Source: a virus
Virus record (IMG/VR): IMGVR_UViG_3300043429_000467
Direction: 5' to 3' (one strand)
Length of the DNA stretch: 64,000 nt
Position numbers and translations under genes: made by a program. This document shows, piece after piece, positions 47,846 through 62,376 of the stretch (position 1 is its first letter; each line of letters opens with the position of its first letter). The notes under the pieces are model-generated. The model was not told the DNA's origin. It made no database searches and saw only the letters and a list, made by a program, of their open reading frames with translations.

Positions 47846-48119
47846 TTAATAATTCCTCAAAAGAGTATCTTGCATAATTTAGTAGCATGATACCGTTATC
47901 TGTTTCACCGTGTAATTTACTTATATGGACAGCTTCTGCCATTGCAGGCTCTTCATGCTTGAATATAAAACAATCTCCAAACATTTGCAAGAGTATTTCT
48001 CTATTCATCTCGAAGTTATTTGTTAAATCATCATATCGACCAAACAAGTTGGTATATTGATTTGAGTAAGCAACTCGAAGTCCATCTTTAGTTATTAGTA
48101 TATATATTCCTGTTTCCAT
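47820..48119 (-). CDS. Small GIY-YIG-like domain protein (99 aa)
   Basis: GIYILITKDGLRVAYSNQ...FGRY...E...N fits the GIY-x10-Y(I/V)G...R...E...N spacing. Confidence 0.35.
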   Translation of the reverse strand: METGIYILITKDGLRVAYSNQYTNLFGRYDDLTNNFEMNREILLQMFGDCFIFKHEEPAMAEAVHISKLHGETDNGIMLLNYARYSFEELLNGNKTSDA

Positions 48120-48201
48120 TTGATTTTTCTTAATTTATTCGTATTCGAGAAAATATTAACATAAATAAGTATATTAGTCAACTATAGATTGAGATATTAA
48201 T

Positions 48202-48480
48202 ATGGAACAATTCTTTAAATTAGTCGCAGACGTTGGATTTCCTATAGCGGCCGCATGTGGTGCTGGATACTTTGTATTCTTAACACTTAAGTTTATTCTT
48301 GAAGGTGTTACAGGTGGTGTTAAAAGTATGGCAGGAATTATTATTGCACTTGATAAACGAGTAGCAACTATGAACCACGACGTACTACGTATCGATACTA
48401 AAGTAAGTCATGCATTAGGTATTCCACCTGATTTAGATAGAATATCACGAGCAGAACAATCTGACGCTAGACGAGACTAA
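48202..48480 (+). CDS. Small membrane protein, paralog A (92 aa)
   Basis: N-terminal TM helix FPIAAACGAGYFVFL, shared with the adjacent paralog. Confidence 0.4.
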   Translation: MEQFFKLVADVGFPIAAACGAGYFVFLTLKFILEGVTGGVKSMAGIIIALDKRVATMNHDVLRIDTKVSHALGIPPDLDRISRAEQSDARRD

Positions 48481-48481
48481 T

Positions 48482-48739
48482 ATGGATATAGTAGAATTAA
48501 TTAATAAATACGGGTTCCCAATTGTTGCCGCTGGTGGTCTAGGTTACTTTGTTTACTACGTTTGGAAATGGGTAACTGAAGAAATTGAACCAGTTATTGG
48601 AGATTCTAAAAAAGTTTTGGTTGATTTGATTGACCGTATCAGAATGCTTGATAATGATTTAATCAGATTAACACAGAAAGTTAATACATTCTTAGCCATT
48701 GAAGATGCTAAGAAAAGGGATAGGAATAATAAGCAATAG
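48482..48739 (+). CDS. Small membrane protein, paralog B (85 aa)
   Basis: FPIVAAGGLGYFVYYVW TM helix, paralogous to 48202-48480. Confidence 0.4.
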   Translation: MDIVELINKYGFPIVAAGGLGYFVYYVWKWVTEEIEPVIGDSKKVLVDLIDRIRMLDNDLIRLTQKVNTFLAIEDAKKRDRNNKQ

Positions 48740-48871
48740 AATCTTATCAAGGGGTAACACCGAGATTCTACAAGTTGTCAAGTAGTTTGTCAAGAGAAAT
48801 TTAAAAATATTGTAAATAATTAGTAACATCATGGTTTAGTTGATTGATTTGAATTACGGAACTGAGCCAAA

Positions 48872-49312
48872 ATGAAAATATTAATATTTGCTATATGTCT
48901 ATTACTATGTGGTAGTGCATATGCTACCGAATTAGTGCACGAGTTTTTTTCACCAGCCTTTTCAGGTAATGGTTATTCAACTCATATATTAACCATTGAG
49001 CAAATTGAGTCTCAGCGTAAACAAAAAATTAAAGATGAACAGAAAGCGGCTGAGACTAAAGCTGAATTAGCCGCTAAACAAACAAATCTTGCTAAGTTTT
49101 TAGTGAATGTTGAGTCTAGAATATATGCTCAATTATCTAAGCAACTTGCAGATGAAATGTTTGCCGAAGGTGGTGCTGATTCCGGTGAAATGAATTTTCA
49201 AGGAACTAACATATCATGGTACAAAACAGGAAGTGATGTAACCTTAACTATTCTTGAAGATAACGGTAATAGAACCGAAGTTACTGTGCCGATAGCAGGA
49301 TTCTCATTTTAA
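48872..49312 (+). CDS. csgF: CsgF-like curli assembly protein (secreted)
   Basis: Signal peptide, then ELVHEFFSPAFSGNGYSTHILT, which parallels the E. coli CsgF N-terminus [22 protein letters not shown]. Stop overlaps the csgG start (TAATG). Confidence 0.55.
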   Translation: MKILIFAICLLLCGSAYATELVHEFFSPAFSGNGYSTHILTIEQIESQRKQKIKDEQKAAETKAELAAKQTNLAKFLVNVESRIYAQLSKQLADEMFAEGGADSGEMNFQGTNISWYKTGSDVTLTILEDNGNRTEVTVPIAGFSF

Positions 49313-50091
49313 TGATTCGTTTATTGATACTAATATTCGTTTTGTCAGGATGTGCTAACGTTCATATGAATGCGGCAAAAGAAGAACCTGTCAAGATAGA
49401 AGCTAGAAAAAAGATTGTTGATGCTTTACCTGAATTGGATGGACCACCGATTCCTATCGCAGTGTATTCGTTCGCAGATAAGACAGGTCAAAAGAAGTCA
49501 TCAGATAATCTGGCATTGTTTAGTACCGCAGTAACGCAAGGTGCAGAAGTGTTTCTAATCAAAGCGTTACAAGATAGTAAGAATTGGTTTAAAGTAGTAG
49601 AAAGGGTGGGACTTGATAATCTTATTAAAGAAAGACAGTTGATAAGAAATCAAAGAGAAGTATATGAAGGTAAAGAAGCAAAGCCATTAAAACCAATGAT
49701 GGTTGCTGGTGTAATGATAGAAGGAGGTATCATTGGATATGATACTAACATCAGGTCAGGTGGTAATGGTGCTAGATTATTAGGTATTGGTGTTTCACAG
49801 CAATATAGAGTAGATGAAATTGTAATCTCTATTAGATTGGTGAATGTCAATTCGGGTGAAGTAATGTTAACTAACGCAGTATCCAAAACGATTTACAGTA
49901 CTCAACATAACTTAGGTATCATGAAGTTTGTTGATTCAGGTACTAAGTCGATTGAGTTTGAAAATGGAGTTGCACTTAATGAACCTACTACATTCGCAGT
50001 AAGAGTTGCGATTGAACAAGCGGTTTATGAATTGATAATAGATGGAGAAAAGAAAGGTTATTGGAAATTTAAAAAGGAAAAACAGCAATGA
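49312..50091 (+). CDS. csgG: CsgG curli secretion channel lipoprotein
   Basis: Lipobox LSGC. IPIAVYSFADKTGQ...FSTAVTQGAEVFLIKALQDS...ERVGLDNLIKERQLIR...MIEGGIIGYDTNIRSGGNGARLLGIGVSQQYRVDEIVISIRLVNVNSGEV aligns along its length with E. coli CsgG (FVSVYNIQDETGQ...FSTAVPQSATAMLVTALKDS...ERQGLQNLLNERKIIR...MVEGSIIGYESNVKSGGVGARYFGIGADTQYQLDQIAVNLRVVNVSTGEI). Confidence 0.85.
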   Translation: MIRLLILIFVLSGCANVHMNAAKEEPVKIEARKKIVDALPELDGPPIPIAVYSFADKTGQKKSSDNLALFSTAVTQGAEVFLIKALQDSKNWFKVVERVGLDNLIKERQLIRNQREVYEGKEAKPLKPMMVAGVMIEGGIIGYDTNIRSGGNGARLLGIGVSQQYRVDEIVISIRLVNVNSGEVMLTNAVSKTIYSTQHNLGIMKFVDSGTKSIEFENGVALNEPTTFAVRVAIEQAVYELIIDGEKKGYWKFKKEKQQ

Positions 50092-50675
50092 AAAAAATAG
50101 CATTAATCTTTATGATGATAATGCTTAGTAATGTATATGCCGCAGAAATTTATATTGAACAGTCAGGAAGTAGTTCTACTGTCAATATAAATCAAGAAGG
50201 TATAGGTAATATTGTAGGTGATTCACTGAATCCGCTTTATATTGGCGGTGGTTCGAATAACGTTGATATCGACCAAATCGGTGATAATAACAACCTTCAA
50301 GGTGTTGTAAATGGTGCAGGAACAGCAACCACAGTAACAACTAATGGTTCAGGTAATATTCAAATTATTAATTGTGGTACAACAACATCAGCAGGATGTT
50401 CATCATCAGTAATCAAACAAGTAGTTACTGGAAGTGATAACACTATAACTCAAGATTTAGGTACTGGTGCTAATCATAACAGTGAGATTACGATTACTGG
50501 AAGTGATAACGCAGTGACTCATACTAGCACAAATGCTGGTGCAAGTACTGTAGATATTTCAGTGAGTGGTAATCAAAATACTGTGGGAGTAACACAAAGT
50601 GGACTTACAGCGAAAACTGTATCAGTTAGTTCTACTGGTAATAGCAATAATATTACTATCAACCAGTCAGAATAG
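50088..50675 (+). CDS. Curlin-repeat (CsgA/CsgB-like) secreted amyloid subunit
   Basis: Signal peptide plus at least six imperfect repeats of the S-x5-Q-x-G-x-x-N type (TVNINQEGIGN, NVDIDQIGDNN, NTITQDLGTGAN, NTVGVTQSG, NNITINQS). Start overlaps the csgG stop. Confidence 0.65.
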   Translation: MKKIALIFMMIMLSNVYAAEIYIEQSGSSSTVNINQEGIGNIVGDSLNPLYIGGGSNNVDIDQIGDNNNLQGVVNGAGTATTVTTNGSGNIQIINCGTTTSAGCSSSVIKQVVTGSDNTITQDLGTGANHNSEITITGSDNAVTHTSTNAGASTVDISVSGNQNTVGVTQSGLTAKTVSVSSTGNSNNITINQSE

Positions 50676-51696
50676 TTATTCAGCAATCGGTAAAGTTTCA
50701 GAACAAACAGGTCCTACCGAGATTGTCCGACAAAGCAAATCAATAGAGAGTAAATTAAACTCTTCTATTGAGATGCTTGACACTGTGGTAACCGCAAAGT
50801 CTAAAGTGTTACTAACGTTCGAAGATGATACAACAGTTAAGATTACTGAACAATCTAAATTAATTATCGATGATTTTGTTTATGATAATAAAAAAGGTGC
50901 TGGTAAATTAGCATTAAAAGTTGCTTTGGGTACGGCAAGATATGCTTCAGGACAGATAGCTAAGAGTAACCCACAATCAGTTAACATACAGACACCAACA
51001 GCAACAATTGCAGTTCGTGGTACTGATTTTAGTATGACTGTAGATGAATTAGGTAGAAGTTTGGTGATGCTTTTACCTTCTTGTGATAAGAAAGCGTGTG
51101 TAACAGGTGCTATTGAAGTGAGTACCGATGCAGGTTCTGTTTTTATGAATCAAGCATATCAAACAACTGTAGTTGCTACACGAGACCAAGCACCAACTAA
51201 GCCTGTGATTGTTAATATAGACCAGGCAAATATTAATAACTTGTTGATTGTTGCACCTCCAAAACAAGTAGAAGAACAAAAGATACAGCAAGATAATAAA
51301 ACTGTATTAGATTATAACTTTTTAGATAGAGATTTATTAGAGTATAACAAACTAGATGAAGATGAATTAAAAAGGTTTAGTTTACTTGATATGAATTTTT
51401 TATCTTTTGATTTGTTACCAAATATTTTGGATGAATCGAATAGGTCATTAGCGGCAAGTCAAGAAGCAATGCTAGAAGAAAAAACTTTGCTTCCTGGATA
51501 TAATGAAGCATCAGGATTGAAATATGGTATAGATGAAAATGGTAAGTTGATTTTAACAAAGATTGCTAATCATACTGCACAAGTGACAGTTGATAAAGAG
51601 CATGATGTGATTGTTAGTATTACGCAGGATAGTTCACCACTGATACAAAAAGTGAATGGTGGTGGAACAACAACAATTAACATTAATCAGAAATAG
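50599..51696 (+). CDS. Secreted FecR-domain-like protein (365 aa)
   Basis: Signal peptide MDLQRKLYQLVLLVIAIILLSTSQNSYSA. Central TPTATIAVRGTDFSMTVDE resembles FecR/DUF4974-type beta-sandwich domains. 5' end overlaps the curlin gene by 77 nt in another frame. Confidence 0.4.
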   Translation: MDLQRKLYQLVLLVIAIILLSTSQNSYSAIGKVSEQTGPTEIVRQSKSIESKLNSSIEMLDTVVTAKSKVLLTFEDDTTVKITEQSKLIIDDFVYDNKKGAGKLALKVALGTARYASGQIAKSNPQSVNIQTPTATIAVRGTDFSMTVDELGRSLVMLLPSCDKKACVTGAIEVSTDAGSVFMNQAYQTTVVATRDQAPTKPVIVNIDQANINNLLIVAPPKQVEEQKIQQDNKTVLDYNFLDRDLLEYNKLDEDELKRFSLLDMNFLSFDLLPNILDESNRSLAASQEAMLEEKTLLPGYNEASGLKYGIDENGKLILTKIANHTAQVTVDKEHDVIVSITQDSSPLIQKVNGGGTTTININQK

Positions 51697-51704
51697 GAGT
51701 AAAA

Positions 51705-53699
51705 ATGCTAAAGCAATCTTTATTAACAGTGGCATTAATCGGTGTGTTTGGTACAGTTCAATCAGCACCTTTAGTATTAGAAGGCGATTACATCAAAATT
51801 GGTGTAAACGAAGTAGGTACATTAGGTTCTAATGGTAATACATCACCTGGTGTTCTATATGATAACACCGGCACAGGAACATTCAACACAGCATATGACT
51901 ACTTAACTCCTGGTTCACCATTCGAAGGATGGACTGTTCAATATAATGGAACAGAATCAGTGATGAATAACAATGCTCAATGGTCATCACCACAAATGAC
52001 AGGTACACTAACAAGTTACAATGGTGTTGCTTACAATGGTACAACATTCGACAATCGAGCAGTTTGGGAAGGTACTTCAGTAAACTTTGATTTGTTACAT
52101 GATGTTCGCTTCAATGATAATCAAAAGTTTGTGGATATTACATCAATATTGACAGCTAAAGTTGCAATGACTGATTTATACTTCGCAAGATATACAGACC
52201 CTGACGCACGTGCGGCCGCTGGTGACAGTTCTGCTACAACAAACACATTAGGATTCTCACCTATTCCAGTAACTCAAGTTGTATTTTCTGAAGCTTTAGT
52301 ATCTAGATATGCACTTGGTTTATACTCAGCGGCACCTAACGTAGGCGCAGGTGTTAGTTCAGGTTGGTCAACAGACGCAACAACATATTACACCGGTGCA
52401 AATGATGGTAATGGTGACTATACGATAGGTTTAGGCTTCCACGTACCAACAGTAGCAATTGGTGACATCGTTACCTTTAATTATGCATACATCTTTGGAC
52501 CTAGCACATTATCTGCTGGTTCTACTGCTGTTACTTCAGGTGCTGGTGGTGGCGTTCCTGGTGAAGTTCCTGGTTGTGTGTCTGATTGTACATTACCACC
52601 TGACCCTAGTTCAACTCCTACATTAGTATCAACAGACGTTGAGTTATCTAGTGTATCTGTAGTTCATAGAGGTGATACTGATACTGCAATCGAATACGAC
52701 TATGCAACATCAAAAGGTTCTAAAGTATTAGCTGTAAATCAAACTACAACTACAACTTTAACAACTCCAGTAACAACTACAGTAGCTTCTACTTCAACTA
52801 CAGTTGAAACATATAGTGATTCATCAGTAGTTCGTACAGTTGGTGCAACTACAACGACATCAAGTACAGTTAATGACGTAACAGAATCAGAATATGATAC
52901 TGCATTCTCAACAAGAATTGACCAATTTGATAGATTGTCAGCATCAAATGAAATGTACAATAGACAGTTAAATAGTAATATCATGGATAGATTTGTAGCA
53001 GGTCAAACTGGTGCTTATTTAAACATCGATAGTCAAACTAGCAATACACAAGATACCTATAAACAAAAAGCAAATCGTTTTGGTGTTGGAGTAGACAAGT
53101 CTATTACTGATAATTTGAATGTAGGTTTTCAATACAATAACATTTCATCAAGATTATCTGGAACTAATGCAGGTGGACGTTTAGATAAAAATCATGTTGG
53201 TGCATATGCTGTATACACTAAAAACAATTGGGTGTTTGTAAACGATATTGGTTTCTCATATAACGATTACAAAACAAATCACAGTTTACCTGAATTGAAT
53301 GCAACAAATAGTTCAAGTGCTAATGGATATGACTTATGGGTTAGCGGTAGAGCATATACTCCATCACTAAAAGGATTCAGACCATATGCTGGTATTAGAA
53401 TTGAAAACAACAACTTAGATTCAGCTAAAGATAAAGGTACTGAATTGACTGCTGTTAGTTATAGTAAAATTAATTCAACAAATACAACAGGTGAATATGG
53501 TATCAGATACGATTATCAATACAAAAAAGTTAACTTGTTAGCTGAAGTTGGTTCTAATTCTGATAATATCAAACTATACAAAGCAGGTATTAACTTTATT
53601 CCAAATGAAAAAGTTATTGGTGGTGTATCATTTACGCAACAAGAATATGATAATATCAAGAATGATGTGATTTCAGCTAATATAAAAGTTAATTTCTAA
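51705..53699 (+). CDS. Autotransporter-like outer-membrane protein (passenger, Thr-rich linker, C-terminal beta-barrel)
   Basis: Signal peptide; Thr-rich linker TTTTLTTPVTTTVASTSTT; C-terminal alternating-hydrophobic strands ending ...ISANIKVNF (aromatic terminal residue typical of OMP barrels). Confidence 0.5.
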   Translation: MLKQSLLTVALIGVFGTVQSAPLVLEGDYIKIGVNEVGTLGSNGNTSPGVLYDNTGTGTFNTAYDYLTPGSPFEGWTVQYNGTESVMNNNAQWSSPQMTGTLTSYNGVAYNGTTFDNRAVWEGTSVNFDLLHDVRFNDNQKFVDITSILTAKVAMTDLYFARYTDPDARAAAGDSSATTNTLGFSPIPVTQVVFSEALVSRYALGLYSAAPNVGAGVSSGWSTDATTYYTGANDGNGDYTIGLGFHVPTVAIGDIVTFNYAYIFGPSTLSAGSTAVTSGAGGGVPGEVPGCVSDCTLPPDPSSTPTLVSTDVELSSVSVVHRGDTDTAIEYDYATSKGSKVLAVNQTTTTTLTTPVTTTVASTSTTVETYSDSSVVRTVGATTTTSSTVNDVTESEYDTAFSTRIDQFDRLSASNEMYNRQLNSNIMDRFVAGQTGAYLNIDSQTSNTQDTYKQKANRFGVGVDKSITDNLNVGFQYNNISSRLSGTNAGGRLDKNHVGAYAVYTKNNWVFVNDIGFSYNDYKTNHSLPELNATNSSSANGYDLWVSGRAYTPSLKGFRPYAGIRIENNNLDSAKDKGTELTAVSYSKINSTNTTGEYGIRYDYQYKKVNLLAEVGSNSDNIKLYKAGINFIPNEKVIGGVSFTQQEYDNIKNDVISANIKVNF

Positions 53700-53723
53700 T
53701 TTTTAACGACTAAATAAGTAATC

Positions 53724-55742
53724 ATGAAAAAATTACTTAATCCATGGTTAGCGTTAATAACGTTAACTTTATTAGTAGTAATCAGATTGGCAGACTTCAG
53801 TTTTATCGAGTCTGTCAGATTGCGATATTTTGACACATTAATTACAAGTGAATCTGTAAAGGTTTCTGAACAAATTCACGTTGTAAATATAGATGATAAG
53901 TCCATAGAAAAGTATGGACAATTTCCGTTTCCTAGAGGTGATTATGCGAGCATTATTGATTCTTTGTATGACCGTGGCGCTGGGCTGGTTGTTTTTAACT
54001 TGTTTCTACCTGATAGTGATAGGTTTGGACAAGATGGTAGACTTACTTCTACCCTTAACAAACACCCTGTAGTATTCCCACAAGCTGGTTCTACTGATAA
54101 ACAAAAAGCTATACCATTTAGACCTGGTGTTTCTGAGATTGGAACACCAGCTTCTAATTTTGCAGTATCTTATCCAAGTATTTTAACTAACATAAAACAA
54201 ATTAATGAAAATGCCGCTGGCATTGGAGTAGTGAATGTATTACCTGAAATTGATGGTGTTGTCCGTCGTGTACCTATGGTCGTCTCAAGCAATGGCGTAT
54301 TGTTTCCCTCAATCACACTTGAAACTTTGCGAGTTGCTTCCGGAGACCCAAGTTTCCAAGTCAAGTCAACAGATTACGGTATCGAGGCCGTCAGAATACC
54401 TAGCTTCAGAAAAGTTGAAACTGACTCTTTCGGACGAGTTTGGATTGACTGGTCCACTAAGCCTACCGAACACAGTCTTGTTGATTTACCCAAGTCCTTT
54501 GATGGGACAATCGTCATTGTTGGACTCAGTGCTAAAGGACTCAACAATCCTGTCGCAACAGCAAGAGGAGAGGTCTATCCGCATTATTTACAGGCAAGCG
54601 TTCTAGATACACTTGTATCAGGTAAAAATATTAGTAGACCTGACTGGTCAAATGGTGTAGAATTATTATTGACAGTTATTCTGTCTGTGATATCTATATT
54701 ATTAACTAGGTGGAAATATGGCTTTATTGCTTTTCTTGCTATCATTGCTGGTGTTGTGGGTGCTTCTAAAGGTGCTTTTGTTTACTATTCGTATCTTCTT
54801 GATTGTATTTTTCCTGTGTTTTGCTTGGGTATTGTTTATTTACATGTGTATACAGTTAAGTTCGTAAGCGAATTAAATCAAAAACTTCAAATCAAAAAAC
54901 AATTTGGCACATATCTGTCGCCAGCACTTGTTGAAAAACTTCAAAAGAATCCTGAATTATTAAGACTTGGTGGTGAGTCTCGTGAACTATCTATTATGTT
55001 CACCGATGTTAGAGGCTTCACTACAATCTCAGAACACTATGGTAAAGATGTTCAAGGATTAACTCAAATTATGAATCGCTACATGACAGCGATGACCGCA
55101 AAGATTATTGAGAACAACGGAACACTGGATAAATACATTGGTGATGCTCAGATGGCTTTCTGGAATGCACCACTTGATGAGCCTAACCACGCTAAATTGG
55201 CATTGAAAACGGCTCTAGAAATGATGGAGAGTTTAGATGCGTTTAATAAAGAGATTCAAAAAGAGGGTATTCCGGCGTTTGGTATGGGACTCGGGATTAA
55301 TACTGGCACTGTTGTCGTTGGTAATATGGGTTCTAGCCAACGCTTTGATTACACCTGCTTAGGTGATGCTGTTAACTTAGCGTCACGTTTAGAAGGACAA
55401 TCGAAACCTTATGGTGTTAAAATCATATTAGGTTCGTTAACTGCTGAACAAGTTAAAGATGAATATCCAGTTGTTGAGTTAGATTGTATTGCTGTTAAAG
55501 GTAAAACAGAAGGTGTTAAGATTTATACTCCTTGTGTTTATCAAGAAGAGCATTATAAGTTACACAAAAAATATCTAAAATCATACTATGATGGTATTTG
55601 GGATTCAGCAATTTTCTTTGCTAAAGATTTAGAGATTAATGGTCCTACAGAATTACGTCAATATTATCATAACATGATAGAGAGAATGCTTGAAGGTAAA
55701 CCTGAAGATTGGGATGGTACGTATAGAGCAACTAGCAAGTAA
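53724..55742 (+). CDS. CHASE2 sensor-domain class III adenylate/guanylate cyclase (membrane-bound)
   Basis: N-terminal TM, periplasmic CHASE2-like region, 3-4 TM helices, then a cyclase homology domain (FTDVRGFTTISE...KYIGDAQMAFWNAP...GINTGTVVVGNMGS...YTCLGDAVNLASRLE) with both metal-binding Asp residues. Confidence 0.8.
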   Translation: MKKLLNPWLALITLTLLVVIRLADFSFIESVRLRYFDTLITSESVKVSEQIHVVNIDDKSIEKYGQFPFPRGDYASIIDSLYDRGAGLVVFNLFLPDSDRFGQDGRLTSTLNKHPVVFPQAGSTDKQKAIPFRPGVSEIGTPASNFAVSYPSILTNIKQINENAAGIGVVNVLPEIDGVVRRVPMVVSSNGVLFPSITLETLRVASGDPSFQVKSTDYGIEAVRIPSFRKVETDSFGRVWIDWSTKPTEHSLVDLPKSFDGTIVIVGLSAKGLNNPVATARGEVYPHYLQASVLDTLVSGKNISRPDWSNGVELLLTVILSVISILLTRWKYGFIAFLAIIAGVVGASKGAFVYYSYLLDCIFPVFCLGIVYLHVYTVKFVSELNQKLQIKKQFGTYLSPALVEKLQKNPELLRLGGESRELSIMFTDVRGFTTISEHYGKDVQGLTQIMNRYMTAMTAKIIENNGTLDKYIGDAQMAFWNAPLDEPNHAKLALKTALEMMESLDAFNKEIQKEGIPAFGMGLGINTGTVVVGNMGSSQRFDYTCLGDAVNLASRLEGQSKPYGVKIILGSLTAEQVKDEYPVVELDCIAVKGKTEGVKIYTPCVYQEEHYKLHKKYLKSYYDGIWDSAIFFAKDLEINGPTELRQYYHNMIERMLEGKPEDWDGTYRATSK

Positions 55743-55790
55743 TTTGCATATCACGCAAATTTAAATATGATTTTTTGCGTCAAGTGCAAA

Positions 55791-56042
55791 TTACTTGTCA
55801 TATCTTGAGTTATATATATTATGGTGGTCATCATAATTTTTTCTATATTCAAACTCTTTATCAGTCAAACAAAATTTACCTTGTTTTATTTCAGATAGAT
55901 ATTTTTTTAATCTTTTTTGTCTGTCATCAATTATAAATTTAGCCATACCTTGTTCTTGAAACATATTTATTTGATTAATTGAATTTTTAATATCAAATAG
56001 TATTTCTTCTTTATATCGAAGAGGTTTCTTTCTATATTCCAT
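55791..56042 (-). CDS. Small hypothetical protein (83 aa)
   Basis: Intact ORF. Confidence 0.25.
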   Translation of the reverse strand: MEYRKKPLRYKEEILFDIKNSINQINMFQEQGMAKFIIDDRQKRLKKYLSEIKQGKFCLTDKEFEYRKNYDDHHNIYNSRYDK

Positions 56043-56251: not shown

Positions 56252-56274
56252 ATTAATCTTTCAATTGGTGGGCC

Positions 56275-56352
56275 CCGTGGGATTCGAACCCACTGTCTAT
56301 CGGTTATGAGCCGATTGCTTATACCAGATTTAAGCTTGAGGCCCGAATATGG
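56275..56352 (-). tRNA. tRNA-Met or Ile2 (anticodon CAU)
   Basis: Hand-folded cloverleaf: CCA encoded; T-arm GTGGG/attcgaa/CCCAC on the plus strand; anticodon loop ctCATaa. Confidence 0.6.
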
Positions 56353-56358
56353 AGCGTC

Positions 56359-56433
56359 CTGCGGGAATCGAACCCGCCTCTTCAGCTTGGAAGGCTGTAA
56401 TAATACCACTATACCAAGAACGCATAACGGATG
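56359..56433 (-). tRNA. tRNA-Gly (UCC)
   Basis: Cloverleaf with T-arm GCGGG/aatcgaa/CCCGC; anticodon loop ctTCCaa. Confidence 0.6.
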
Positions 56434-56700
56434 AAAAAGCAAGTAAAAGACGGGACAATGTACATTAGAAGGGCTATGCCACTAAACTCTAAGACAATCA
56501 ACAAACCACAATAATCAAAACCTGCATATTAGTTAGAAACAAAACACAAAGTCGTCGTTTATAATACTAACACACGCAGAACGATTTCAGGTCGTTTTGG
56601 ATTTGGCGTCCATACTGGAGAGAAATTAATCTCATCTTAGTCAATTCTCATCTCTTTTTCATGCCGAGTAGATTTTTTGAAGAAAACCTACCAGAAAAAC

Positions 56701-57267
56701 TTAAAGAATACCTGCTTTAGTTAGTGTTTCCACTACGTTATCAGGTAACTCAATCTCAGTCTTAATATTCAATTCAAGAATCTTATCTTGAATTTTTTGC
56801 TTCTCTTTTTTGAATGTAGAAACATTCTTTTTAGCAATAGAAATATTACCTTCAGTACATACGGTAGTAGTTACTTCATCGGCTCTACCATATACACTTC
56901 TAGTAGTATCTGTATTGTTTTTAATCTTATCAAGCTTACCTTCGACAATATTAATAGCTGTCGCTGGTGCTGAAGTTGCTATGTTTTGATGTAGATGAAT
57001 AGTCTTTTCAATCAATGCAACATCACTTAACAAATCATTAATTTGATTTGCGTTTGCTTTACCAACTAGTTTTCTAATCGTATACAAACTAACATACAAA
57101 TCATTATTTACCTCAAAAGCTGTTAAATAATCTTTGTTTGCTTTATCAAACTTTTCAGATACATTTTCAAACTCATTGAATGTAACCATATTGTTTAGCT
57201 GATTATTCTTAATAGTATCAAGAATAGTTTGTTGTAATGCATTTGCTTTTCTAAGCGTAATTTTCAT
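56701..57267 (-). CDS. Hypothetical protein (188 aa) inside the tRNA region
   Basis: Intact ORF; predicted helical/coiled. Confidence 0.3.
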   Translation of the reverse strand: MKITLRKANALQQTILDTIKNNQLNNMVTFNEFENVSEKFDKANKDYLTAFEVNNDLYVSLYTIRKLVGKANANQINDLLSDVALIEKTIHLHQNIATSAPATAINIVEGKLDKIKNNTDTTRSVYGRADEVTTTVCTEGNISIAKKNVSTFKKEKQKIQDKILELNIKTEIELPDNVVETLTKAGIL

Positions 57268-57275
57268 AATAACTC

Positions 57276-57461
57276 CTAATGTGCTAAAATCTTAAAGCAC
57301 TTAAATTTAATAACTTTTGTTGTACCTGAAGCCATCTTCTTAGCTTCTTCACCTGCGGCAACACATTCTTGTTGTGAAAAGAAACCTGGTACATTAGTTA
57401 ATGCCATCGAATCAGTATCACTCATCATACCTGCATGTGCAAACAATAATAAAACCCACAT
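57276..57461 (-). CDS. Small secreted hypothetical protein (61 aa)
   Basis: Signal-peptide-like N-terminus. Confidence 0.25.
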   Translation of the reverse strand: MWVLLLFAHAGMMSDTDSMALTNVPGFFSQQECVAAGEEAKKMASGTTKVIKFKCFKILAH

Positions 57462-57483
57462 AATAAATCTCCAATAATAAGAA

Positions 57484-57559
57484 TGGTGTCCCCGGAGAGA
57501 ATCGAACTCCCGTATAATGCTTTAGAAGAGCACTGCGTCATCCACTACGCTACGAGGAC
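57484..57559 (-). tRNA. tRNA-Arg (UCU)
   Basis: Cloverleaf folded by hand; anticodon loop ctTCTaa. Confidence 0.55.
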
Positions 57560-57594
57560 ATTTGAAAGCATATTACTATACTTTACTTTAAATG

Positions 57595-58155
57595 TCAAAT
57601 ATATCTACTATGTTTAGGTAGTTTAGACTTTAAGTATTCCATTTGGTCAGCAACTACGTTTCTATTCTGTAGAATAAAGTGTTCCCATCTACAAGGTCTG
57701 TAAGGTAAAAACAACAATAACATATTAGCTTCTTCAGGTGTTCTATCTGCTTTCTTAGAGTTACAGTGCTTACATGAAGACACTGAGTTTTCCCAAGCAT
57801 TAGAACCACCACGACTTCTTGGATGTACGTGGTCTCTAGTCAAATCTTTTGATTCAAAGAATAGTCCACAGTAAGCACATAAGTTATGGTCTCGTCTGAA
57901 TAACAAAAAGTTACCGTGAGCATTCACAGTTTCTTTAGTATGCAATCTTCGAGTTTCACCTCTTACTGAGATGATAGACTTGATACTGATTTGAGATTGT
58001 AAACCATTCTTTTGATAGCCGCCATGAAACACTTGAAACTCAGTACCTAAGTCCCAAACAACTTTATCTGAGGCGTAGTAATGCACCGCTTCTTCGGGCA
58101 TCAGCCACTTGAAGGGATTACCTGCAATATCTAGTCCTAGTATACGTGCTTCCAT
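57595..58155 (-). CDS. HNH homing-type endonuclease
   Basis: CAYCGLFF...DHVHPRSRGGSNAWENSVSSCKHCNSKK (HNH motif with flanking Cys pairs). Inserted between tRNA genes. Confidence 0.75.
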   Translation of the reverse strand: MEARILGLDIAGNPFKWLMPEEAVHYYASDKVVWDLGTEFQVFHGGYQKNGLQSQISIKSIISVRGETRRLHTKETVNAHGNFLLFRRDHNLCAYCGLFFESKDLTRDHVHPRSRGGSNAWENSVSSCKHCNSKKADRTPEEANMLLLFLPYRPCRWEHFILQNRNVVADQMEYLKSKLPKHSRYI

Positions 58156-58204
58156 GATAGTCTCAAAAAAATAATTTAGATGTTATATGTATATATCTTT
58201 AAAA

Positions 58205-58281
58205 TTGGTGCGGAAGGAGGGAGTCGAACCCTCAAAACTCGGATTTTAAGTCCGATACGTATGCCAATTCCGTCACATCCG
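58205..58281 (-). tRNA. tRNA with anticodon UAA (Leu-type anticodon) but short 5-nt variable region
   Basis: Clean T-arm GAGGG/agtcgaa/CCCTC, 5-bp anticodon stem TCGGA/TCCGA, loop ctTAAaa. Total 77 nt, class I architecture. Confidence 0.5.
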
Positions 58282-58361
58282 CTTATTAAATTTAGAACGT
58301 TGCTGTTTCTGAACCCTAGTAGTAACAATAAAGTTAAAAAATTACAGCAACGCTCTAAAAC

Positions 58362-58438
58362 TGGTAGAAGTAGTGAGATTCGAACTCACGATAGGTTGCG
58401 TATGAAGCAACTGCATTAAGCCACTATGCTACACTTCT
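58362..58438 (-). tRNA. tRNA-Met or Ile2 (CAU), second copy
   Basis: T-arm GTGAG/attcgaa/CTCAC; anticodon stem GTTGC/GCAAC; loop ttCATac. Confidence 0.6.
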
Positions 58439-58650
58439 GTTAAAACTTTTTGCTTCATAAATTGGCAGTATGCTTTATAATCTTCATGCATTGCCTTTTG
58501 TATTAACTCATCAGTGCTTTTATAAAAAATATGTCCAACTAGTTTTAATCTAATAGACTCATATAAACAGTCCATCTTCAATTCTTCAGATGGAGGATAT
58601 TCTTTATAAAACTCTTCATAAGTTAACATAATAATCCTTTGGGGTGTCAT
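58429..58650 (-). CDS. Small hypothetical protein (73 aa)
   Basis: Intact ORF between tRNAs. Confidence 0.25.
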   Translation of the reverse strand: MTPQRIIMLTYEEFYKEYPPSEELKMDCLYESIRLKLVGHIFYKSTDELIQKAMHEDYKAYCQFMKQKVLTEV

Positions 58651-58718
58651 ACGAGATTTGAACTCGTGCTATAACATTCACAGTGTTAGGTGCTAACCAC
58701 TACACTAATGACACCATT
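58640..58718 (-). tRNA. tRNA-His (GUG)
   Basis: Anticodon loop ctGTGaa; discriminator C and extra 5' G(-1), consistent with His identity. Confidence 0.65.
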
Positions 58719-58721
58719 AAA

Positions 58722-58795
58722 TGGCTCCGGTGGAGGGAGTCGAACCCCCGCCAAGAGGTTTGGAGTCTCTTGTGCTACCGTAACACTTCACCGGA
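58722..58795 (-). tRNA. tRNA-Trp (CCA)
   Basis: Anticodon loop ctCCAaa; acceptor stem perfectly complementary. Confidence 0.55.
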
Positions 58796-58802
58796 ATAAA
58801 AC

Positions 58803-58879
58803 TGGAGGATAGAGTGAGATTCGAACTCACGAACCACTGCTTTGCAGGCAGGTACCTTAGACCACTCGGTCATCTATCC
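58803..58879 (-). tRNA. tRNA-Cys (GCA)
   Basis: T-arm GTGAG/attcgaa/CTCAC; anticodon loop ctGCAaa. Confidence 0.55.
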
Positions 58880-59101
58880 TTAACAACAACCTGCATCTGG
58901 AAAAATAAATACTTTTTCTTCAGCAGAATCATCAGTATTATATTCAATAAATGTGTTAATTTCTTCTTGTGCAAATGTAACACCTTCATTCTCTGCTAAA
59001 AACGTAGCATCAGCTAGATTATCAGCAACTACAACTAACCCGCCATCTGAATGGTAATTGTCAGTTAGATTAGCAATCCTTGTCCAAATAAAAACTTTCA
59101 T
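58880..59101 (-). CDS. Small hypothetical protein (73 aa)
   Basis: Intact ORF. Confidence 0.25.
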   Translation of the reverse strand: MKVFIWTRIANLTDNYHSDGGLVVVADNLADATFLAENEGVTFAQEEINTFIEYNTDDSAEEKVFIFPDAGCC

Positions 59102-59104
59102 AAT

Positions 59105-59521
59105 CTACTCCAATGGAAATAATTCTTTAAATTTTGCAGTCATTACATCAATTAAAACTGGATGACGATAATCGTAGTCATCTTCAATTTCTAAATTAAT
59201 TACTTGTTTAAAATCAAAATCAAATGTCCAATTATCCATATCATTAAACATTTTGTTTTGCATTGTATTGATATGTAATTGTTGAATACTATCCATCACT
59301 AGAATAACATCAGCCCAAATAATCAAAGCTTCAGTCACAGGAATAATCGCATATTCTGCACTAGTTCCTGCACATCTAGTATTGAAGTTCCATGGTTCTG
59401 AACTAAGAATATGTGCCGCTGTAGGACTTCTTAGACATCCTGCTGAACATACAGTCAATACTTTCTTATGCTTTCCTTGATAAGCATTGAATATCACCCC
59501 AAGTTGGTTTCTTTTTAGCAT
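59105..59521 (-). CDS. Low-molecular-weight phosphotyrosine phosphatase / ArsC-family fold protein (tentative)
   Basis: VLTVCSAGCLRSPTAAHIL resembles the P-loop CX5R(S/T) signature of the LMW-PTP family. Confidence 0.4.
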   Translation of the reverse strand: MLKRNQLGVIFNAYQGKHKKVLTVCSAGCLRSPTAAHILSSEPWNFNTRCAGTSAEYAIIPVTEALIIWADVILVMDSIQQLHINTMQNKMFNDMDNWTFDFDFKQVINLEIEDDYDYRHPVLIDVMTAKFKELFPLE

Positions 59522-59690
59522 TCTTACTTTCCTTAATAAAAATCTTTAGTGTTCTACCTTCATCTTGAAGACTAAACTCTAATGATTCTACATTCCAATT
59601 AGTATAACTACGACCTTTACCATCAATCACTTCAACTCTAGTGACATCATAATAAGGCTCTTCAAATCTATTAATATGCGGATTGGTCAT
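59466..59690 (-). CDS. Small hypothetical protein (74 aa; 5' end overlaps neighbour)
   Basis: ORF overlapping the phosphatase-like gene by 56 nt; true start uncertain. Confidence 0.2.
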   Translation of the reverse strand: MTNPHINRFEEPYYDVTRVEVIDGKGRSYTNWNVESLEFSLQDEGRTLKIFIKESKNAKKKPTWGDIQCLSRKA

Positions 59691-60243
59691 GGAATGTAAA
59701 TCCTTTATTCTTAAATTTTTGTAATCGCCACTCTTTAATAAATTTGATATCAGTATTATAGATTAGCTTCTTATTCATACATGCGTCATACTGTTCTCGT
59801 GAGATAAACAACTTATCTTGCATCAACAAATAGTAAGGTTTGCAATGAACAAAGTCAAAATGATTTCGAACATCATTAGGATGTCCTGCAAACGTGAAGA
59901 TGAATGAGTCATCAGTCTTCATGGTAATCGCATTAGCGGTAATCATTTTACCATTATTATCTGCGTGTTCCATGTAATTGATATTGACTTCTTTAATCTC
60001 ATCATCATAATTCTTTTCTATGTGTTCTTTAAATGTTACGGCAGAATCTTGGTCATAGAAATAAAAGTCCCAATCTTTAGGTATTTCGCCCCTTAATAGA
60101 GAACCGATTGCACCACCTGAAAGATACACGGCATCATTTTCATACAGCATTTTCCACCAATCAAAATTCTTCAATGCTTCCATATGGAATTTAATGGTGT
60201 CTTTTACATCTTTAATTTTATTCTTTTCGTTTTCAGTAAACAT
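59671..60243 (-). CDS. Polymerase-beta-type nucleotidyltransferase-fold protein (tentative)
   Basis: LSGGAIGSLLRGEIPKDWDFYFYD fits a G[SG]-x8-DxD NTase signature. Confidence 0.35.
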   Translation of the reverse strand: MFTENEKNKIKDVKDTIKFHMEALKNFDWWKMLYENDAVYLSGGAIGSLLRGEIPKDWDFYFYDQDSAVTFKEHIEKNYDDEIKEVNINYMEHADNNGKMITANAITMKTDDSFIFTFAGHPNDVRNHFDFVHCKPYYLLMQDKLFISREQYDACMNKKLIYNTDIKFIKEWRLQKFKNKGFTFHDQSAY

Positions 60244-60307
60244 ACAATCACCTAATCATAATATAAAATAATCATACATCAAAATTAATTTAATGTAAAG
60301 CATTATT

Positions 60308-60383
60308 TGGTAGGACCCCTCGGAATCGAACCGAGTCCTCAGCGTCTTCAGCGCCACGTACTGACCACATATACGTGAGTCCT
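60308..60383 (-). tRNA. tRNA-Phe (GAA)
   Basis: T-arm CTCGG/aatcgaa/CCGAG; anticodon loop ctGAAga; stem has two G-U pairs. Confidence 0.55.
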
Positions 60384-60385
60384 AT

Positions 60386-60461
60386 TGGTACTCGAAGAGA
60401 GAATCGAACTCTCATTTGACGATTATCGGTCGTCTGTTCTAAACCGTTGAACTATTCGAGC
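60386..60461 (-). tRNA. tRNA-Ile (GAU)
   Basis: T-arm GAGAG/aatcgaa/CTCTC; anticodon stem GACGA/TCGTC; loop ccGATaa. Confidence 0.6.
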
Positions 60462-60462
60462 A

Positions 60463-60963
60463 TTAATAAACAACATTATAGCAACAATTAAGTACTACTC
60501 TCTCAATATTGCTATTCTTAACTTGTTCTACTTTATGATAATACCAAGGCATCATATTAACAAAAATACATGTTCCATATTTTGGATATACTGTGAACAC
60601 TTCTTCTTGAGCATTCTTGAAACTGATAGAACCACCAGTTTCTTCGTTCATATCATTAAAGTATACTAAAGCAAACAGATTCCAACCTTCTCTTAAATCG
60701 TTGTGCCAATCACAACTAGTTGGTTCTGTACCTTTCCATAATTCTGTTTTTCCAACATCTACAGATTGAAACGACTTGTTTAATATTGTAACAAGCTTTT
60801 CATTAATAGATTTTATAGCGTTATCTAAATTGTCATCATCTTTAGGTTCATATACATTGTTTAAATGTTCGTCTTTCCATATGATTAATTTTAAATCAAC
60901 ATCCGATAACAACTCAGAAATGTCGATTTGATGATAACCTTTTTCTATTAAATCATTTATCAT
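60463..60963 (-). CDS. 2OG-Fe(II) oxygenase-like protein (tentative)
   Basis: WHNDLREG (HxD) and downstream YYHKVE...ERVV, with spacing compatible with a prolyl-hydroxylase-type facial triad. Confidence 0.35.
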   Translation of the reverse strand: MINDLIEKGYHQIDISELLSDVDLKLIIWKDEHLNNVYEPKDDDNLDNAIKSINEKLVTILNKSFQSVDVGKTELWKGTEPTSCDWHNDLREGWNLFALVYFNDMNEETGGSISFKNAQEEVFTVYPKYGTCIFVNMMPWYYHKVEQVKNSNIERVVLNCCYNVVY

Positions 60964-60975
60964 AATCTTCCTTTA

Positions 60976-61051
60976 TTGGACCCCTCTGCAAGAATCGAAC
61001 TTGCATCATAACGTTCGTAGCGTTGTATTCTAATCCATTGAACTAAAAGGG
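60976..61051 (-). tRNA. tRNA-Arg (ACG)
   Basis: T-arm GCAAG/aatcgaa/CTTGC; anticodon loop ctACGaa. Confidence 0.5.
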
Positions 61052-61057
61052 GTAAAA

Positions 61058-61132
61058 CTGGCGACTCGTGGGGGAATCGAACCCCCGTATCCTACTAGAC
61101 AGGCAGGCATAATAACCATTATATCAACGAGT
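61058..61132 (-). tRNA. tRNA-Asp (GUC)
   Basis: T-arm GGGGG/aatcgaa/CCCCC; anticodon loop ctGTCta. Confidence 0.6.
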
Positions 61133-61183
61133 CAAAAAACTTTCAAGCAATTGTTTTCAGCAATCGATGAAAGCCGTGTTACA

Positions 61184-61258
61184 TGGTGCCCCGTGACGGA
61201 TTCGAACCGCCATAACCTGATTACAAAACAGGCATAATAGCCTTTATATGAACAGGGC
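61184..61258 (-). tRNA. tRNA-Thr (UGU)
   Basis: Anticodon loop ttTGTaa; acceptor with one G-U. Confidence 0.55.
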
Positions 61259-61263
61259 AAAAC

Positions 61264-61340
61264 TGGTACTCAGTGAAGGAATCGAACCTTCCTAAGCTAT
61301 CTTGTAAGGATAGTCTCTAGCCAATCGAGTCAACTGAGTA
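61264..61340 (-). tRNA. tRNA-Val (UAC)
   Basis: T-arm GAAGG/aatcgaa/CCTTC; anticodon stem CTATC/GATAG; loop ctTACaa. Confidence 0.55.
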
Positions 61341-61344
61341 TAAT

Positions 61345-61419
61345 TGGTGGAATAGGCGAGACTCGAACTCGCAACAGTCTGCTTGCAAAGCAGGTGAACT
61401 CCCATTGTTCTACTACCCC
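61345..61419 (-). tRNA. tRNA-Ala (UGC)
   Basis: Anticodon loop ttTGCaa; acceptor stem carries a G3-U70 pair, the Ala identity element. Confidence 0.6.
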
Positions 61420-61425
61420 AAAACT

Positions 61426-61500
61426 TGGTCTCTCAGGTAGGACTCGAACCTACATCGTCTACGCCCCAAACGTAGTGACCAACCTCTGGCCCACTGAGAG
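61426..61500 (-). tRNA. tRNA-Pro (UGG)
   Basis: Anticodon stem CTACG/CGTAG; loop ttTGGgg. Confidence 0.6.
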
Positions 61501-61507
61501 TTAAAAC

Positions 61508-61584
61508 TGGCTGTGTACCTAGGATTCGAACCTAGCGCATCTTGATTAACAGTCAAGCCTTCTCACCTAGAGAAGTCGTACACA
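61508..61584 (-). tRNA. tRNA-Asn (GUU)
   Basis: T-arm CTAGG/attcgaa/CCTAG; anticodon stem CTTGA/TCAAG; loop ctGTTaa; perfect acceptor. Confidence 0.65.
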
Positions 61585-61592
61585 ATAAAACT

Positions 61593-61669
61593 TGGTACCC
61601 TTAGAAGGATTCGAACCTTCAAATTTCTGTTTCTAAGACAGACTCCTTTACCAATTTGGACATAAGGGC
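61593..61669 (-). tRNA. tRNA with anticodon UAG (Leu-type anticodon) but short variable region
   Basis: T-arm GAAGG/attcgaa/CCTTC; anticodon stem TCTGT/ACAGA; loop ctTAGaa; 77 nt, class I architecture. Confidence 0.5.
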
Positions 61670-61677
61670 ATTAAACT

Positions 61678-61767
61678 TGGCGGAAGTTTAGGGAATCGAA
61701 CCCTCGACGATTACTCGTTCCTACTGTTTAGCAAACAGTGCTAGTTTCCCTGACTAGATAAACTTCC
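61678..61767 (-). tRNA. tRNA-Ser (GCU), class II with long variable arm
   Basis: 90 nt; anticodon stem ACTGT/ACAGT; loop ttGCTaa; ~17-nt variable arm. Confidence 0.6.
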
Positions 61768-61837
61768 ATATTGAGCGGTTTGCCGTACTCTCCTAACCTC
61801 GAATACATTATGTTACGGCTTTCTCTCAAACTAAAAC

Positions 61838-61928
61838 TGGCGGAGGGATGGCGGAATCGAACCCCTGGCAATCTCTTGCTCGCTCTGCTTTCAAAACAGA
61901 CGCACTATCCCCGAGTGCATAACCCTCC
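61838..61928 (-). tRNA. tRNA-Ser (UGA), class II
   Basis: ~90 nt; anticodon loop ttTGAaa; variable-arm hairpin GCAA/tctc/TTGC. Confidence 0.5.
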
Positions 61929-61935
61929 ATTACTG

Positions 61936-62013
61936 ATTTGTAGTCTAGGGAATCGAACCCTAATAAAATCTAGAATACGGTGTCAATCGACACTTATTAG
62001 TCCAACCCTACAA
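61936..62013 (-). tRNA. tRNA-like element, possibly degenerate (anticodon not resolved)
   Basis: Good T-arm TAGGG/aatcgaa/CCCTA and partial acceptor complementarity (tttgtag / ctacaaa), but no encoded CCA and no canonical anticodon arm; an internal hairpin GTGTC/aatc/GACAC is present. Confidence 0.3.
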
Positions 62014-62016
62014 AAC

Positions 62017-62093
62017 TGGCAGCCGTGGTGAGATTCGAACTCACTATGTACTAGCTTCAAAGACTAGTGCACTTCCTGTCGTGCGTCACGGCA
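62017..62093 (-). tRNA. tRNA-Gln (UUG)
   Basis: T-arm GTGAG/attcgaa/CTCAC; anticodon arm ACTAG(T)/ctTTGaa/(G)CTAGT with a 6th U-G pair closing a 7-nt loop (or a 9-nt loop alternative). Confidence 0.45.
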
Positions 62094-62101
62094 ATAAATC
62101 T

Positions 62102-62176
62102 TGGTGGGAGCACAGGGACTCGAACCCTGAATGATTGATTAAAAGTCAACTGTGATAACCATTTCACCATACTCCC
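62102..62176 (-). tRNA. tRNA-Lys (UUU)
   Basis: T-arm CAGGG/actcgaa/CCCTG; anticodon loop ctTTTaa. Confidence 0.6.
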
Positions 62177-62218
62177 AAAACTTGGCTCGTTTTTATAGAG
62201 GTGAACACTCCTCATGTT

Positions 62219-62304: not shown

Positions 62305-62376
62305 ATTAAACCATACAGAAGCATACTGAACGACCCCAGCAACTACGTTGAAGGCGCCGAACAATACGCTTTTGTA

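Follow-up and report, generated by a model that had tools for sequence, protein, structure and literature searches.

The viral sequence IMGVR_UViG_3300043429_000467 from IMG/VR, a stretch of 64,000 nucleotides to which we refer as the window, carries a gene for a 672-aa protein that combines a CHASE2 sensor domain with a class III nucleotidyl cyclase domain. The gene is the last one in a block lying entirely on the plus strand (48202-55742), which includes genes for homologues of the curli secretion proteins CsgF and CsgG, for a curlin-repeat protein and for an exported FecR-domain protein. A first-pass annotation, made by a model from the letters of the sequence, had described the protein as a membrane CHASE2-sensor class III cyclase that is encoded by the phage and closes a curli-like island. 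This description was borne out by a Pfam domain search (PF05226 and PF00211), by four transmembrane (TM) segments in the hydropathy profile, by T4-type structural genes in the window together with a match of the cyclase to phrog_35576, and by the gene content of the block.

Architecture of the cyclase

Both domains scored above the curated Pfam cut-offs: 128.6 bits against 26.3 for CHASE2 (PF05226) and 74 bits against 21.9 for Guanylate_cyc (PF00211). According to hydropathy, a TM helix at residues ~7-29 precedes the sensor, and three more helices, at ~311-329, 332-354 and 357-379, follow it. As read from the sequence, this is the usual order of CHASE2 receptors: TM helix, extracytoplasmic sensor, three TM helices, cytoplasmic output domain. 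The protein matched phrog_35576 over its full length (E 4e-282), a family which the PHROGs database lists with unknown function.

The sensor domain is as strongly conserved across the viral sequences as the catalytic domain, and between residues 4 and 330 many positions do not vary. In the CHASE2 core PEIDGVxRR (residues 174-182) the positions P174, E175, I176, D177, G178, V179, R181 and R182 were largely invariant in seven divergent phage homologues. The C-terminal tail of ~70 residues has conserved W, R, Y..Y..R and DW.G positions from phages to Bradyrhizobium. An AlphaFold2 model was built with an input of 35 sequences at ≥70% identity, and we used it for the TM helices and the helical tail only. 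Helices were predicted at the TM positions with a predicted local distance difference test score (pLDDT) of 82-90; the tail was predicted as three helices, with a pLDDT of 84-93 for the helices in the 608-656 block.

Catalytic residues and predicted product

The two catalytic motifs quoted in the first-pass annotation are present, FTDVRGFT at residues 426-433 and IGDAQ at residues 472-476. We found 47 cyclase sequences in PDB that match the window protein. The top match was the phytochrome-linked cyclase 6fht (E 7.6e-33), with an alignment that also takes in the preceding helical linker; Spirulina CyaC (1wc1) was matched with E 1.8e-27 and Pseudomonas aeruginosa CyaB (3r5g) with E 3.6e-27. No solved structure matched the CHASE2 part, as every PDB match covers the protein from ~residue 360 onwards only. 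In the alignments with the PDB sequences the metal-binding Asp residues of CyaC and CyaB correspond to D428 and D474, which lie in the two motifs; the substrate-specifying pair is K470/T544, the transition-state residues are N551 and R555, and K592 is a further conserved lysine. The catalytic residues of CyaC and CyaB are identical to those of the window cyclase, including the class IIIb Thr, whereas both enzymes have other sensor modules and no CHASE2.

These positions were then compared in 120 viral homologues (70-100% identity to the window protein) and 79 bacterial ones (30-37%). D428, K470, D474, N551 and R555 were invariant in all 199 sequences. Position 544 was Thr in each of the 120 viral proteins, and Ser (68) or Thr (11) in the 79 bacterial proteins. 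More distant phage homologues differ at some of these sites: gp104 of phage Melnitz (L001, 8917-10968) has Asp at position 544 and Ser at the transition-state position 551, unlike all 120 sequences of the window lineage, and the cyclase of Pelagibacter phage HTVC008M has Ser at 544 and Asn at 551.

In the classification of Linder and Schultz, an adenine-specifying Lys combined with Thr or Ser, instead of the Asp of class IIIa, defines class IIIb adenylyl cyclases; guanylyl cyclases have Glu at the position of the Lys. Since the K470/T544 pair is the mark of a class IIIb adenylyl cyclase, the predicted product is cyclic AMP (cAMP). Thus, of the cAMP/cGMP-type activity initially proposed, the cAMP part was retained and the cGMP part was dropped. 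Given the residues described above, the window protein very probably has class III adenylyl cyclase activity, with CHASE2 as the sensor. As all catalytic residues sit in one chain, it probably acts as a homodimer, in which the active sites would be complete by the general scheme of class III enzymes.

Table 1. Cassette genes of the window and domains of the cyclase, with the basis of each assignment
Feature	Position	Strand	Basis
Small protein 1, 92 aa, N-terminal TM helix; first gene of the cassette	48202..48480	+	phrog_18771, E 4.9e-35
Small protein 2, 85 aa, N-terminal TM helix; paralogue of small protein 1	48482..48739	+	phrog_18771, E 6.3e-33
CsgF homologue, 146 aa	48872..49312	+	PF10614, E 2.6e-17; phrog_35372, E 1.1e-47
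CsgG homologue, 259 aa; outer-membrane curli secretion channel	49312..50091	+	PF03783, E 3.7e-52; phrog_20175, E 1.9e-80
Curlin-repeat protein, 195 aa, signal peptide; putative fibre subunit	50088..50675	+	Curlin_rpt, E 1.1e-5
Exported FecR-domain protein, signal peptide	50599..51696	+	PF04773, E 1.3e-10; phrog_37870, E 5.5e-93
Predicted autotransporter, 664 aa, signal peptide	51705..53699	+	PF03797, E 7.1e-16
Predicted CHASE2 receptor class IIIb adenylyl cyclase, 672 aa, ATG start	53724..55742	+	Pfam, PDB alignments, hydropathy
Predicted periplasmic CHASE2 sensor domain, residues 14-324	53763..54695	+	Pfam PF05226, E 3.9e-37
Three TM helices, ~residues 311-379, chain back to cytoplasm	54654..54860	+	Hydropathy
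Cyclase homology domain, residues 420-596	54981..55511	+	Pfam PF00211, E 1.5e-20
Conserved helical C-terminal tail, residues 601-672	55524..55739	+	Bacterial homologues align through residue 672

The cassette in other viruses

A tblastn search against phage records found the cyclase in four Melnitz strains (37.6% identity, 96% coverage) and in HTVC008M (38%), and the records of both phages annotate the homologue as an adenylate/guanylate cyclase. The gene order in Melnitz and HTVC008M is CsgF, CsgG, curlin, FecR, a second curlin-repeat gene and the cyclase; the second curlin-repeat gene of HTVC008M, annotated merely as hypothetical, carries a PA14 domain. In the protein database we observed more than 120 clusters at 70-87% identity to the window cyclase, several of them on contigs of 150-165 kb, as long as a complete phage genome. 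In IMG/VR, relatives of the cyclase are encoded in at least 574 stretches.

Linkage was counted in 43 IMG/VR loci with ≥6.5 kb of sequence upstream of the cyclase. CsgF, CsgG and FecR genes were found on the same strand in 37 of the 43 loci, a curlin-like gene in 36, and a homologue of small protein 1 in 30; the latter occupies the same position also in L003, L004 and L086. These three loci have the same cassette gene order. The distance from the end of the FecR gene to the start of the cyclase gene ranged among the viral loci from an overlap up to 3.9 kb. In L086, the nearest relative on a long contig (82% identity), the autotransporter is absent and the FecR gene abuts the cyclase gene. In L003 and L004 (8028-10004; cyclase 70% identical) the slot is taken by a DUF4337 gene, a gene for a 117-aa protein, one for a RimK-type ATP-grasp ligase and a 43-aa open reading frame (ORF). 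The autotransporter of the window is unrelated to the slot genes of Melnitz and HTVC008M, and its homologues occur with the cassette, at varying positions, in at least eight other viral loci (L107-L109, L112, L116, L131, L132 and L168). The small TM proteins, CsgF, CsgG, curlin, FecR and the cyclase are therefore the conserved core of the cassette, and the slot that precedes the cyclase is variable.

One cyclase sequence, P0092, was present both on a 160-kb contig and on L004 (JGI 3300025383, 280,146 bp). The cassette and the downstream genes are common to the two contigs, and the upstream genes differ (DNA polymerase B and lipase versus ribonucleotide reductase and haem oxygenase). For the 280-kb contig, possible explanations are an assembly that is chimeric or concatenated, and a relative with a rearranged genome.

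Bacterial homologues and the origin of the FecR pairing

We searched one genome per prokaryotic species and retrieved the flanking sequence of each homologue, up to 10 kb in either direction. The search yielded 80 full-length bacterial homologues (30-37% identity) with alignments reaching residue 672, so that the C-terminal tail is common to phages and bacteria. Most of them come from Alphaproteobacteria, including Bradyrhizobium, Tardiphaga, Mesorhizobium, Methylobacterium and marine single-amplified and metagenome-assembled genomes (MAGs). A CsgG, CsgF or curlin homologue was found within these flanks in none of the 80 loci, in agreement with Wittmers et al. (PMC9599517) that the cyclase is not a part of bacterial curli operons.

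What the bacterial and viral loci do have in common is FecR. A FecR-domain gene was found near the cyclase in 27 of the 80 bacterial loci, and in 25 of the 49 loci with ≥6 kb of sequence on both sides. FecR-domain genes make up a small fraction of any genome, and ~50% occupancy of a ~20-kb interval represents, by rough reasoning with no formal null computed, a strong enrichment.

Two arrangements recur. In one, a giant protein of ~1300-1800 aa without a signal peptide is encoded upstream on the same strand, often together with type I secretion genes; its FecR domain is N-terminal, cadherin-like and Ig-like repeats come after it, and some members also have a laminin-G domain or an RTX repeat. 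In the Pseudolabrys MAG locus L026 (2847-13782) genes for the FecR-cadherin giant, an ABC transporter of the type I secretion system, HlyD and the CHASE2 cyclase follow one another on the same strand with gaps of 5-52 nt; a CRP-like gene lies ~1 kb downstream of the cyclase on the opposite strand, and an MBL-fold gene is also next door. In two Bradyrhizobium loci (L006 and L010) only 4-56 nt separate the end of the giant FecR-cadherin protein, which in L010 also has an RTX repeat, from the cyclase ORF. A giant cadherin/Ig protein with an N-terminal FecR domain was also seen upstream of the CHASE2 cyclase in L013 and L030. The other arrangement was observed in six loci and is divergent: genes for a small FecR protein and for a TPR protein are transcribed away from the cyclase.

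The alphaproteobacterial operons (L026, L006, L010) hold the closest cellular homologues of the phage enzyme, full-length including the tail and 33-37% identical. Here too the cyclase stands beside a FecR-domain protein that is exported and beside an outer-membrane secretion system, which is of type I (ABC, HlyD, TolC-like) in these bacteria and of type VIII in the phage. The FecR part differs as well: it is the N-terminal portion of the giant protein without a signal peptide in the bacteria, and a Sec-exported protein of ~350 aa in the phage. As judged from this gene neighbourhood, FecR and the CHASE2 cyclase form an ancestral pairing that phages inherited from bacteria, mostly Alphaproteobacteria.

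Comparison with published systems

Precedents for a FecR gene adjoining a CHASE2 receptor gene exist in two bacterial systems. In the Burkholderia BiofilmReg operon (PMC5192318), which is biofilm-linked, a periplasmic FecR protein is encoded immediately upstream of the CHASE2 receptor. This operon consists of a response regulator, a LysM-FecR protein and a CHASE2 histidine kinase, so that its output is a histidine kinase and not a cyclase; the ligand of CHASE2 is described there as unknown in general. In Sinorhizobium meliloti cyaD1 adjoins smc02177, which is a FecR-CHASE2 precedent (PMC5498481). The cyclases CyaD1, CyaD2 and CyaK of this species have the same architecture as the window protein (TM helix, CHASE2, three TM helices, class III cyclase); CyaK is 33% identical to it over residues 31-602, a match that stops short of the phage C-terminal tail. 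The S. meliloti enzymes, unlike the phage one, are encoded by chromosomal or megaplasmid genes, are read by the dedicated CRP-type regulator Clr and involve no curli genes. In the searchable literature we found no description of CHASE2 linked to type I secretion or to adhesins.

Parts of the viral cassette have been described before. The curli cluster of pelagimyophages was reported by Zaragoza-Solas et al. 2020, and Buchholz et al. 2022 (PMC9004378) proposed that the CsgGF pore times lysis in Melnitz; neither paper mentions the cyclase. Wittmers et al. 2022 (PMC9599517) assigned both FecR and an adenylate cyclase to the viral type VIII secretion system (T8SS) cluster in myo- and podoviruses, showed the global distribution and expression of this cluster, and speculated on a role of cAMP, with csgD regulation as the analogy. 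Their paper uses neither the word CHASE2 nor the word transmembrane. The adenylate cyclase of the pelagiphage T8SS cluster (HTVC008M AGE60353, Melnitz gp104 QZI94833; PMC9599517) belongs to the same family as the window protein (phrog_35576, 38% identity over 86-96% of the length) and is likewise the last gene, after CsgF, CsgG, curlin, FecR and the variable slot, in a T4-like myophage. The novelty implied by the first-pass annotation has thus to be given up: with the homologue annotated in HTVC008M and Melnitz and placed in the viral curli cluster by Wittmers et al. 2022, the arrangement of the cassette is already published, and the window cyclase is a divergent new example of a known phage family. 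What is added here is the recognition of the enzyme as a CHASE2 receptor, the ancestral pairing with FecR and the lineage-variable slot between FecR and the cyclase.

The window phage is only distantly related to the cultured examples (38% identity for the cyclase, 40-44% for the baseplate wedge protein), and belongs with a large uncultured lineage at 70-87%. It further differs from HTVC008M and Melnitz in the content of the slot, an autotransporter instead of the second curlin-repeat gene, and in having an array of 24 tRNA genes next to the cassette.

Other genes of the cassette and the phage context

The curlin-repeat protein scored 25.7 bits against a cut-off of 20.7 with Curlin_rpt; the NCBIfam CsgA model gave a weak match (E 8.4e-5), below its cut-off. 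For the FecR protein the longest ORF, 365 aa, begins with GTG and the true start is uncertain; the FecR domain covers residues 61-150. Both small TM proteins are free of histidine-kinase family matches (Pfam, E ≤ 0.01); in podoviruses, histidine kinases are encoded at this position according to Wittmers et al. 2022 (PMC9599517). The N-terminus of small protein 2 has a weak match to a holin PHROG (E 2.6e-4).

The 664-aa protein encoded in the slot is made of a passenger of ~300 aa with no match to a known family, a linker rich in Ser and Thr, and a C-terminal beta-barrel ending in Phe. Its PF03797 match surfaces only when the last 264 aa are scanned alone; scans of the full-length protein against Pfam and PHROG returned nothing. 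By this make-up we classify it as a phage-encoded type Va autotransporter.

Phage FecR proteins end in a motif of the form ..I.I.Q ... GG.T.I.I.Q (window 51560-51693, ending ...TTININQK), which was seen in L001, L002 and ~45 IMG/VR loci; its C-terminal Gln was invariant in 48 sequences. The motif looks similar to the last repeat in the curlin-like subunit encoded next to it. We take this likeness as no more than suggestive and build nothing on it: Pfam Curlin_rpt matched none of 48 C-termini, and an hhalign comparison with the phage curlin profile gave P 0.0016 and a probability of 16%. The motif may serve in docking or secretion.

The encoded proteins assign the window to a T4-like myophage: they include baseplate wedge subunits (phrog_219, E 4.8e-163), a tail-tube cap, a tail protein, an RNA ligase and an exonuclease. 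By the baseplate wedge protein the closest isolates are Melnitz (44%), Mosig (42%) and HTVC008M (40%). A megablast search of positions 48000-56000 against phage records gave no match, so that kinship to known phages is seen at the protein level only. Directly downstream of the cassette the genes are on the minus strand, with an 83-aa ORF without a PHROG match as the first gene 3' of the cyclase and the tRNA array, interspersed with small ORFs, at 56266-62452. The T4-type late promoter motif TATAAATA was not found within 42001-62686 and is no commoner than chance in the whole window; a scan for sigma-70 promoters and terminators showed no difference from shuffled sequence.

A possible signalling relay and its alternatives

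Taken together with the FecR pairing, the architecture of the enzyme suggests the following scheme. The receptor-type class IIIb adenylyl cyclase would insert into the inner membrane of the infected cell, with CHASE2 facing the periplasm and the catalytic domain facing the cytoplasm, where it would convert ATP to cAMP. The input to CHASE2 may come from the co-encoded periplasmic FecR-domain protein, which would in turn be tied to the surface apparatus encoded by the phage, that is, the CsgG/CsgF channel, the curlin-like subunit and, in the window, also the autotransporter. The cassette would then be a self-contained relay that starts at the surface structure, passes through FecR and CHASE2 and ends in cAMP, and would report the state of the envelope or the fibre to the cytoplasm. 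In the phage version the FecR-cyclase pair would work with type VIII (curli) secretion, and in the bacterial version with type-I-secreted giant FecR-cadherin-RTX proteins. As no cAMP reader was found in the phage, the reader is presumably a host protein that binds cyclic nucleotide monophosphates (cNMP). CyaD1, CyaD2 and CyaK of S. meliloti, the only relatives with experimental work behind them, are in line with this scheme. We put the probability of such a FecR-coupled CHASE2-cAMP relay at roughly 45%.

A number of observations weigh against the relay. It is gene neighbourhood alone that points to an interaction between FecR and CHASE2, and for S. meliloti the FecR gene smc02177 was reported as not needed for signal perception (PMC5498481). 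For about half of the bacterial homologues, the retrieved flanks contain no FecR gene. With phmmer, FecR, CsgG and CsgF were undetected in 6 of the 43 viral loci, and no cAMP reader was detected in the window or in the viral loci, in a search of low sensitivity with E. coli CRP as the only query. Many podophage curli clusters have FecR without the cyclase (Wittmers et al., PMC9599517), which makes the cyclase dispensable for whatever the curli genes do. The full-length AlphaFold2 model, with a mean pLDDT of 58 and a predicted template modelling score (pTM) of 0.38, is poor and adds no support; and, given the residues of the Melnitz homologue, activity or specificity may differ between phage lineages.

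The main alternative would be plain reprogramming of the host: cAMP switches on host cAMP-receptor regulons, such as those for nutrient uptake and catabolism in support of replication, the adjacency of curli and FecR genes is a legacy of acquisition, and CHASE2 serves as an anchor or a constitutive-on module. We give this possibility a minor but real chance. It would fit the intact and strongly conserved catalytic domain and the variable slot between FecR and the cyclase, which shows that the cyclase is not rigidly wired to one neighbour; also, with no phage-encoded reader found in the weak CRP-query test, any reader would be a host protein. CyaD1 of S. meliloti without CHASE2 gives constitutive cAMP synthesis (plasmid pCyaD1-deltaCHASE2, PMC5498481). 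However, conservation of CHASE2 as strong as that of the catalytic domain argues for a working sensor, and the linkage to FecR has been kept in viruses and bacteria despite very different secretion partners. The particular form of reprogramming suggested in the first-pass annotation, a rewiring of host signalling on the model of the enterobacterial control of curli by cAMP-CRP, which involves csgD regulation, finds no support in the locus: the cassette has no csgD and, within the weak CRP test, no CRP-like gene, while SAR11 and OM43, the hosts of the cultured relatives, have no curli genes (PMC9004378, PMC9599517).

A role in lysis timing appears unlikely. Here the CsgG or CsgGF pore would be a gated secretin or a pinholin-like device, and the CHASE2 cyclase would sense the envelope state or superinfection, like T4 lysis inhibition. 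The pore hypothesis is the one published for Melnitz (PMC9004378), the small TM proteins at the head of the cassette contribute the holin-like match, and the lack of the TATAAATA late motif in 42001-62686 is compatible with non-late expression. Still, the holin match is marginal, the promoter scan was not above chance, the cassette has no endolysin or spanin, and curlin-repeat subunits and an autotransporter point to surface display and not to a lysis pore. Even less probable is an immune or counter-immune role, either a Pycsar-like exclusion of competing phages or a nucleotide that disturbs host defence signalling; a counter-defence function had been offered in the first-pass annotation as the second option. 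PADLOC PycC models do match the catalytic domain (residues 418-559, best E 1.3e-25), and the Pycsar cyclases of Tal et al. 2021 reportedly share the class III fold. The match is no better than those to true adenylyl cyclases and reflects the generic cyclase domain, the Lys/Thr pair is that of class IIIb adenylyl cyclases, and there is no adjacent cNMP-binding effector; the neighbours are secretion and surface proteins, with no PADLOC match for FecR, CsgG and the autotransporter. Around the bacterial homologues lie secretion genes, and no recognisable defence genes were seen among the recurrent neighbours that we annotated. Counter-defence was accordingly set aside. Finally, the cyclase domain might have degenerated into a signalling or scaffold module without catalysis, the outcome which the first-pass annotation had named as fatal to its own proposal; this is improbable in the extreme. 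The sole pointer to it is the Ser that replaces the transition-state Asn in the Melnitz homologue. Against it stand all six canonical residues in the window protein, aligned to CyaC and CyaB and invariant in the 120 viral sequences; five of these residues are invariant in the 79 bacterial homologues too, with Ser or Thr at position 544.

The FecR-coupled relay could also be read more broadly, as a portable outside-in pathway. FecR would tether the state of the fibre or autotransporter to CHASE2, and cAMP would let the cell respond to signals such as contact with cells or particles, aggregation or attack by a second phage, perhaps by adjusting metabolism or the timing of lysis; FecR domains would then generally couple secreted adhesins or fibres to CHASE2 receptors. 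Such a general rule, not described before, is suggested by the bacterial operons, where a giant adhesin secreted by type I carries FecR as its N-terminal part and is encoded beside the same cyclase. We regard this wider version as rather doubtful.

Implications

Cassettes of this kind are very common in uncultured aquatic T4-like phages. An active cyclase would mean that cells infected by these viruses gain a source of cAMP under the control of a signal. SAR11 and OM43 bacteria have very few regulators of their own. The two-gene form seen in L086, in which the FecR gene abuts the CHASE2 cyclase gene, would be a compact system for asking what CHASE2 senses, and the recurrent pairing of the cyclase with type-I-secreted FecR-cadherin giants suggests that the same logic may be at work in many Alphaproteobacteria.

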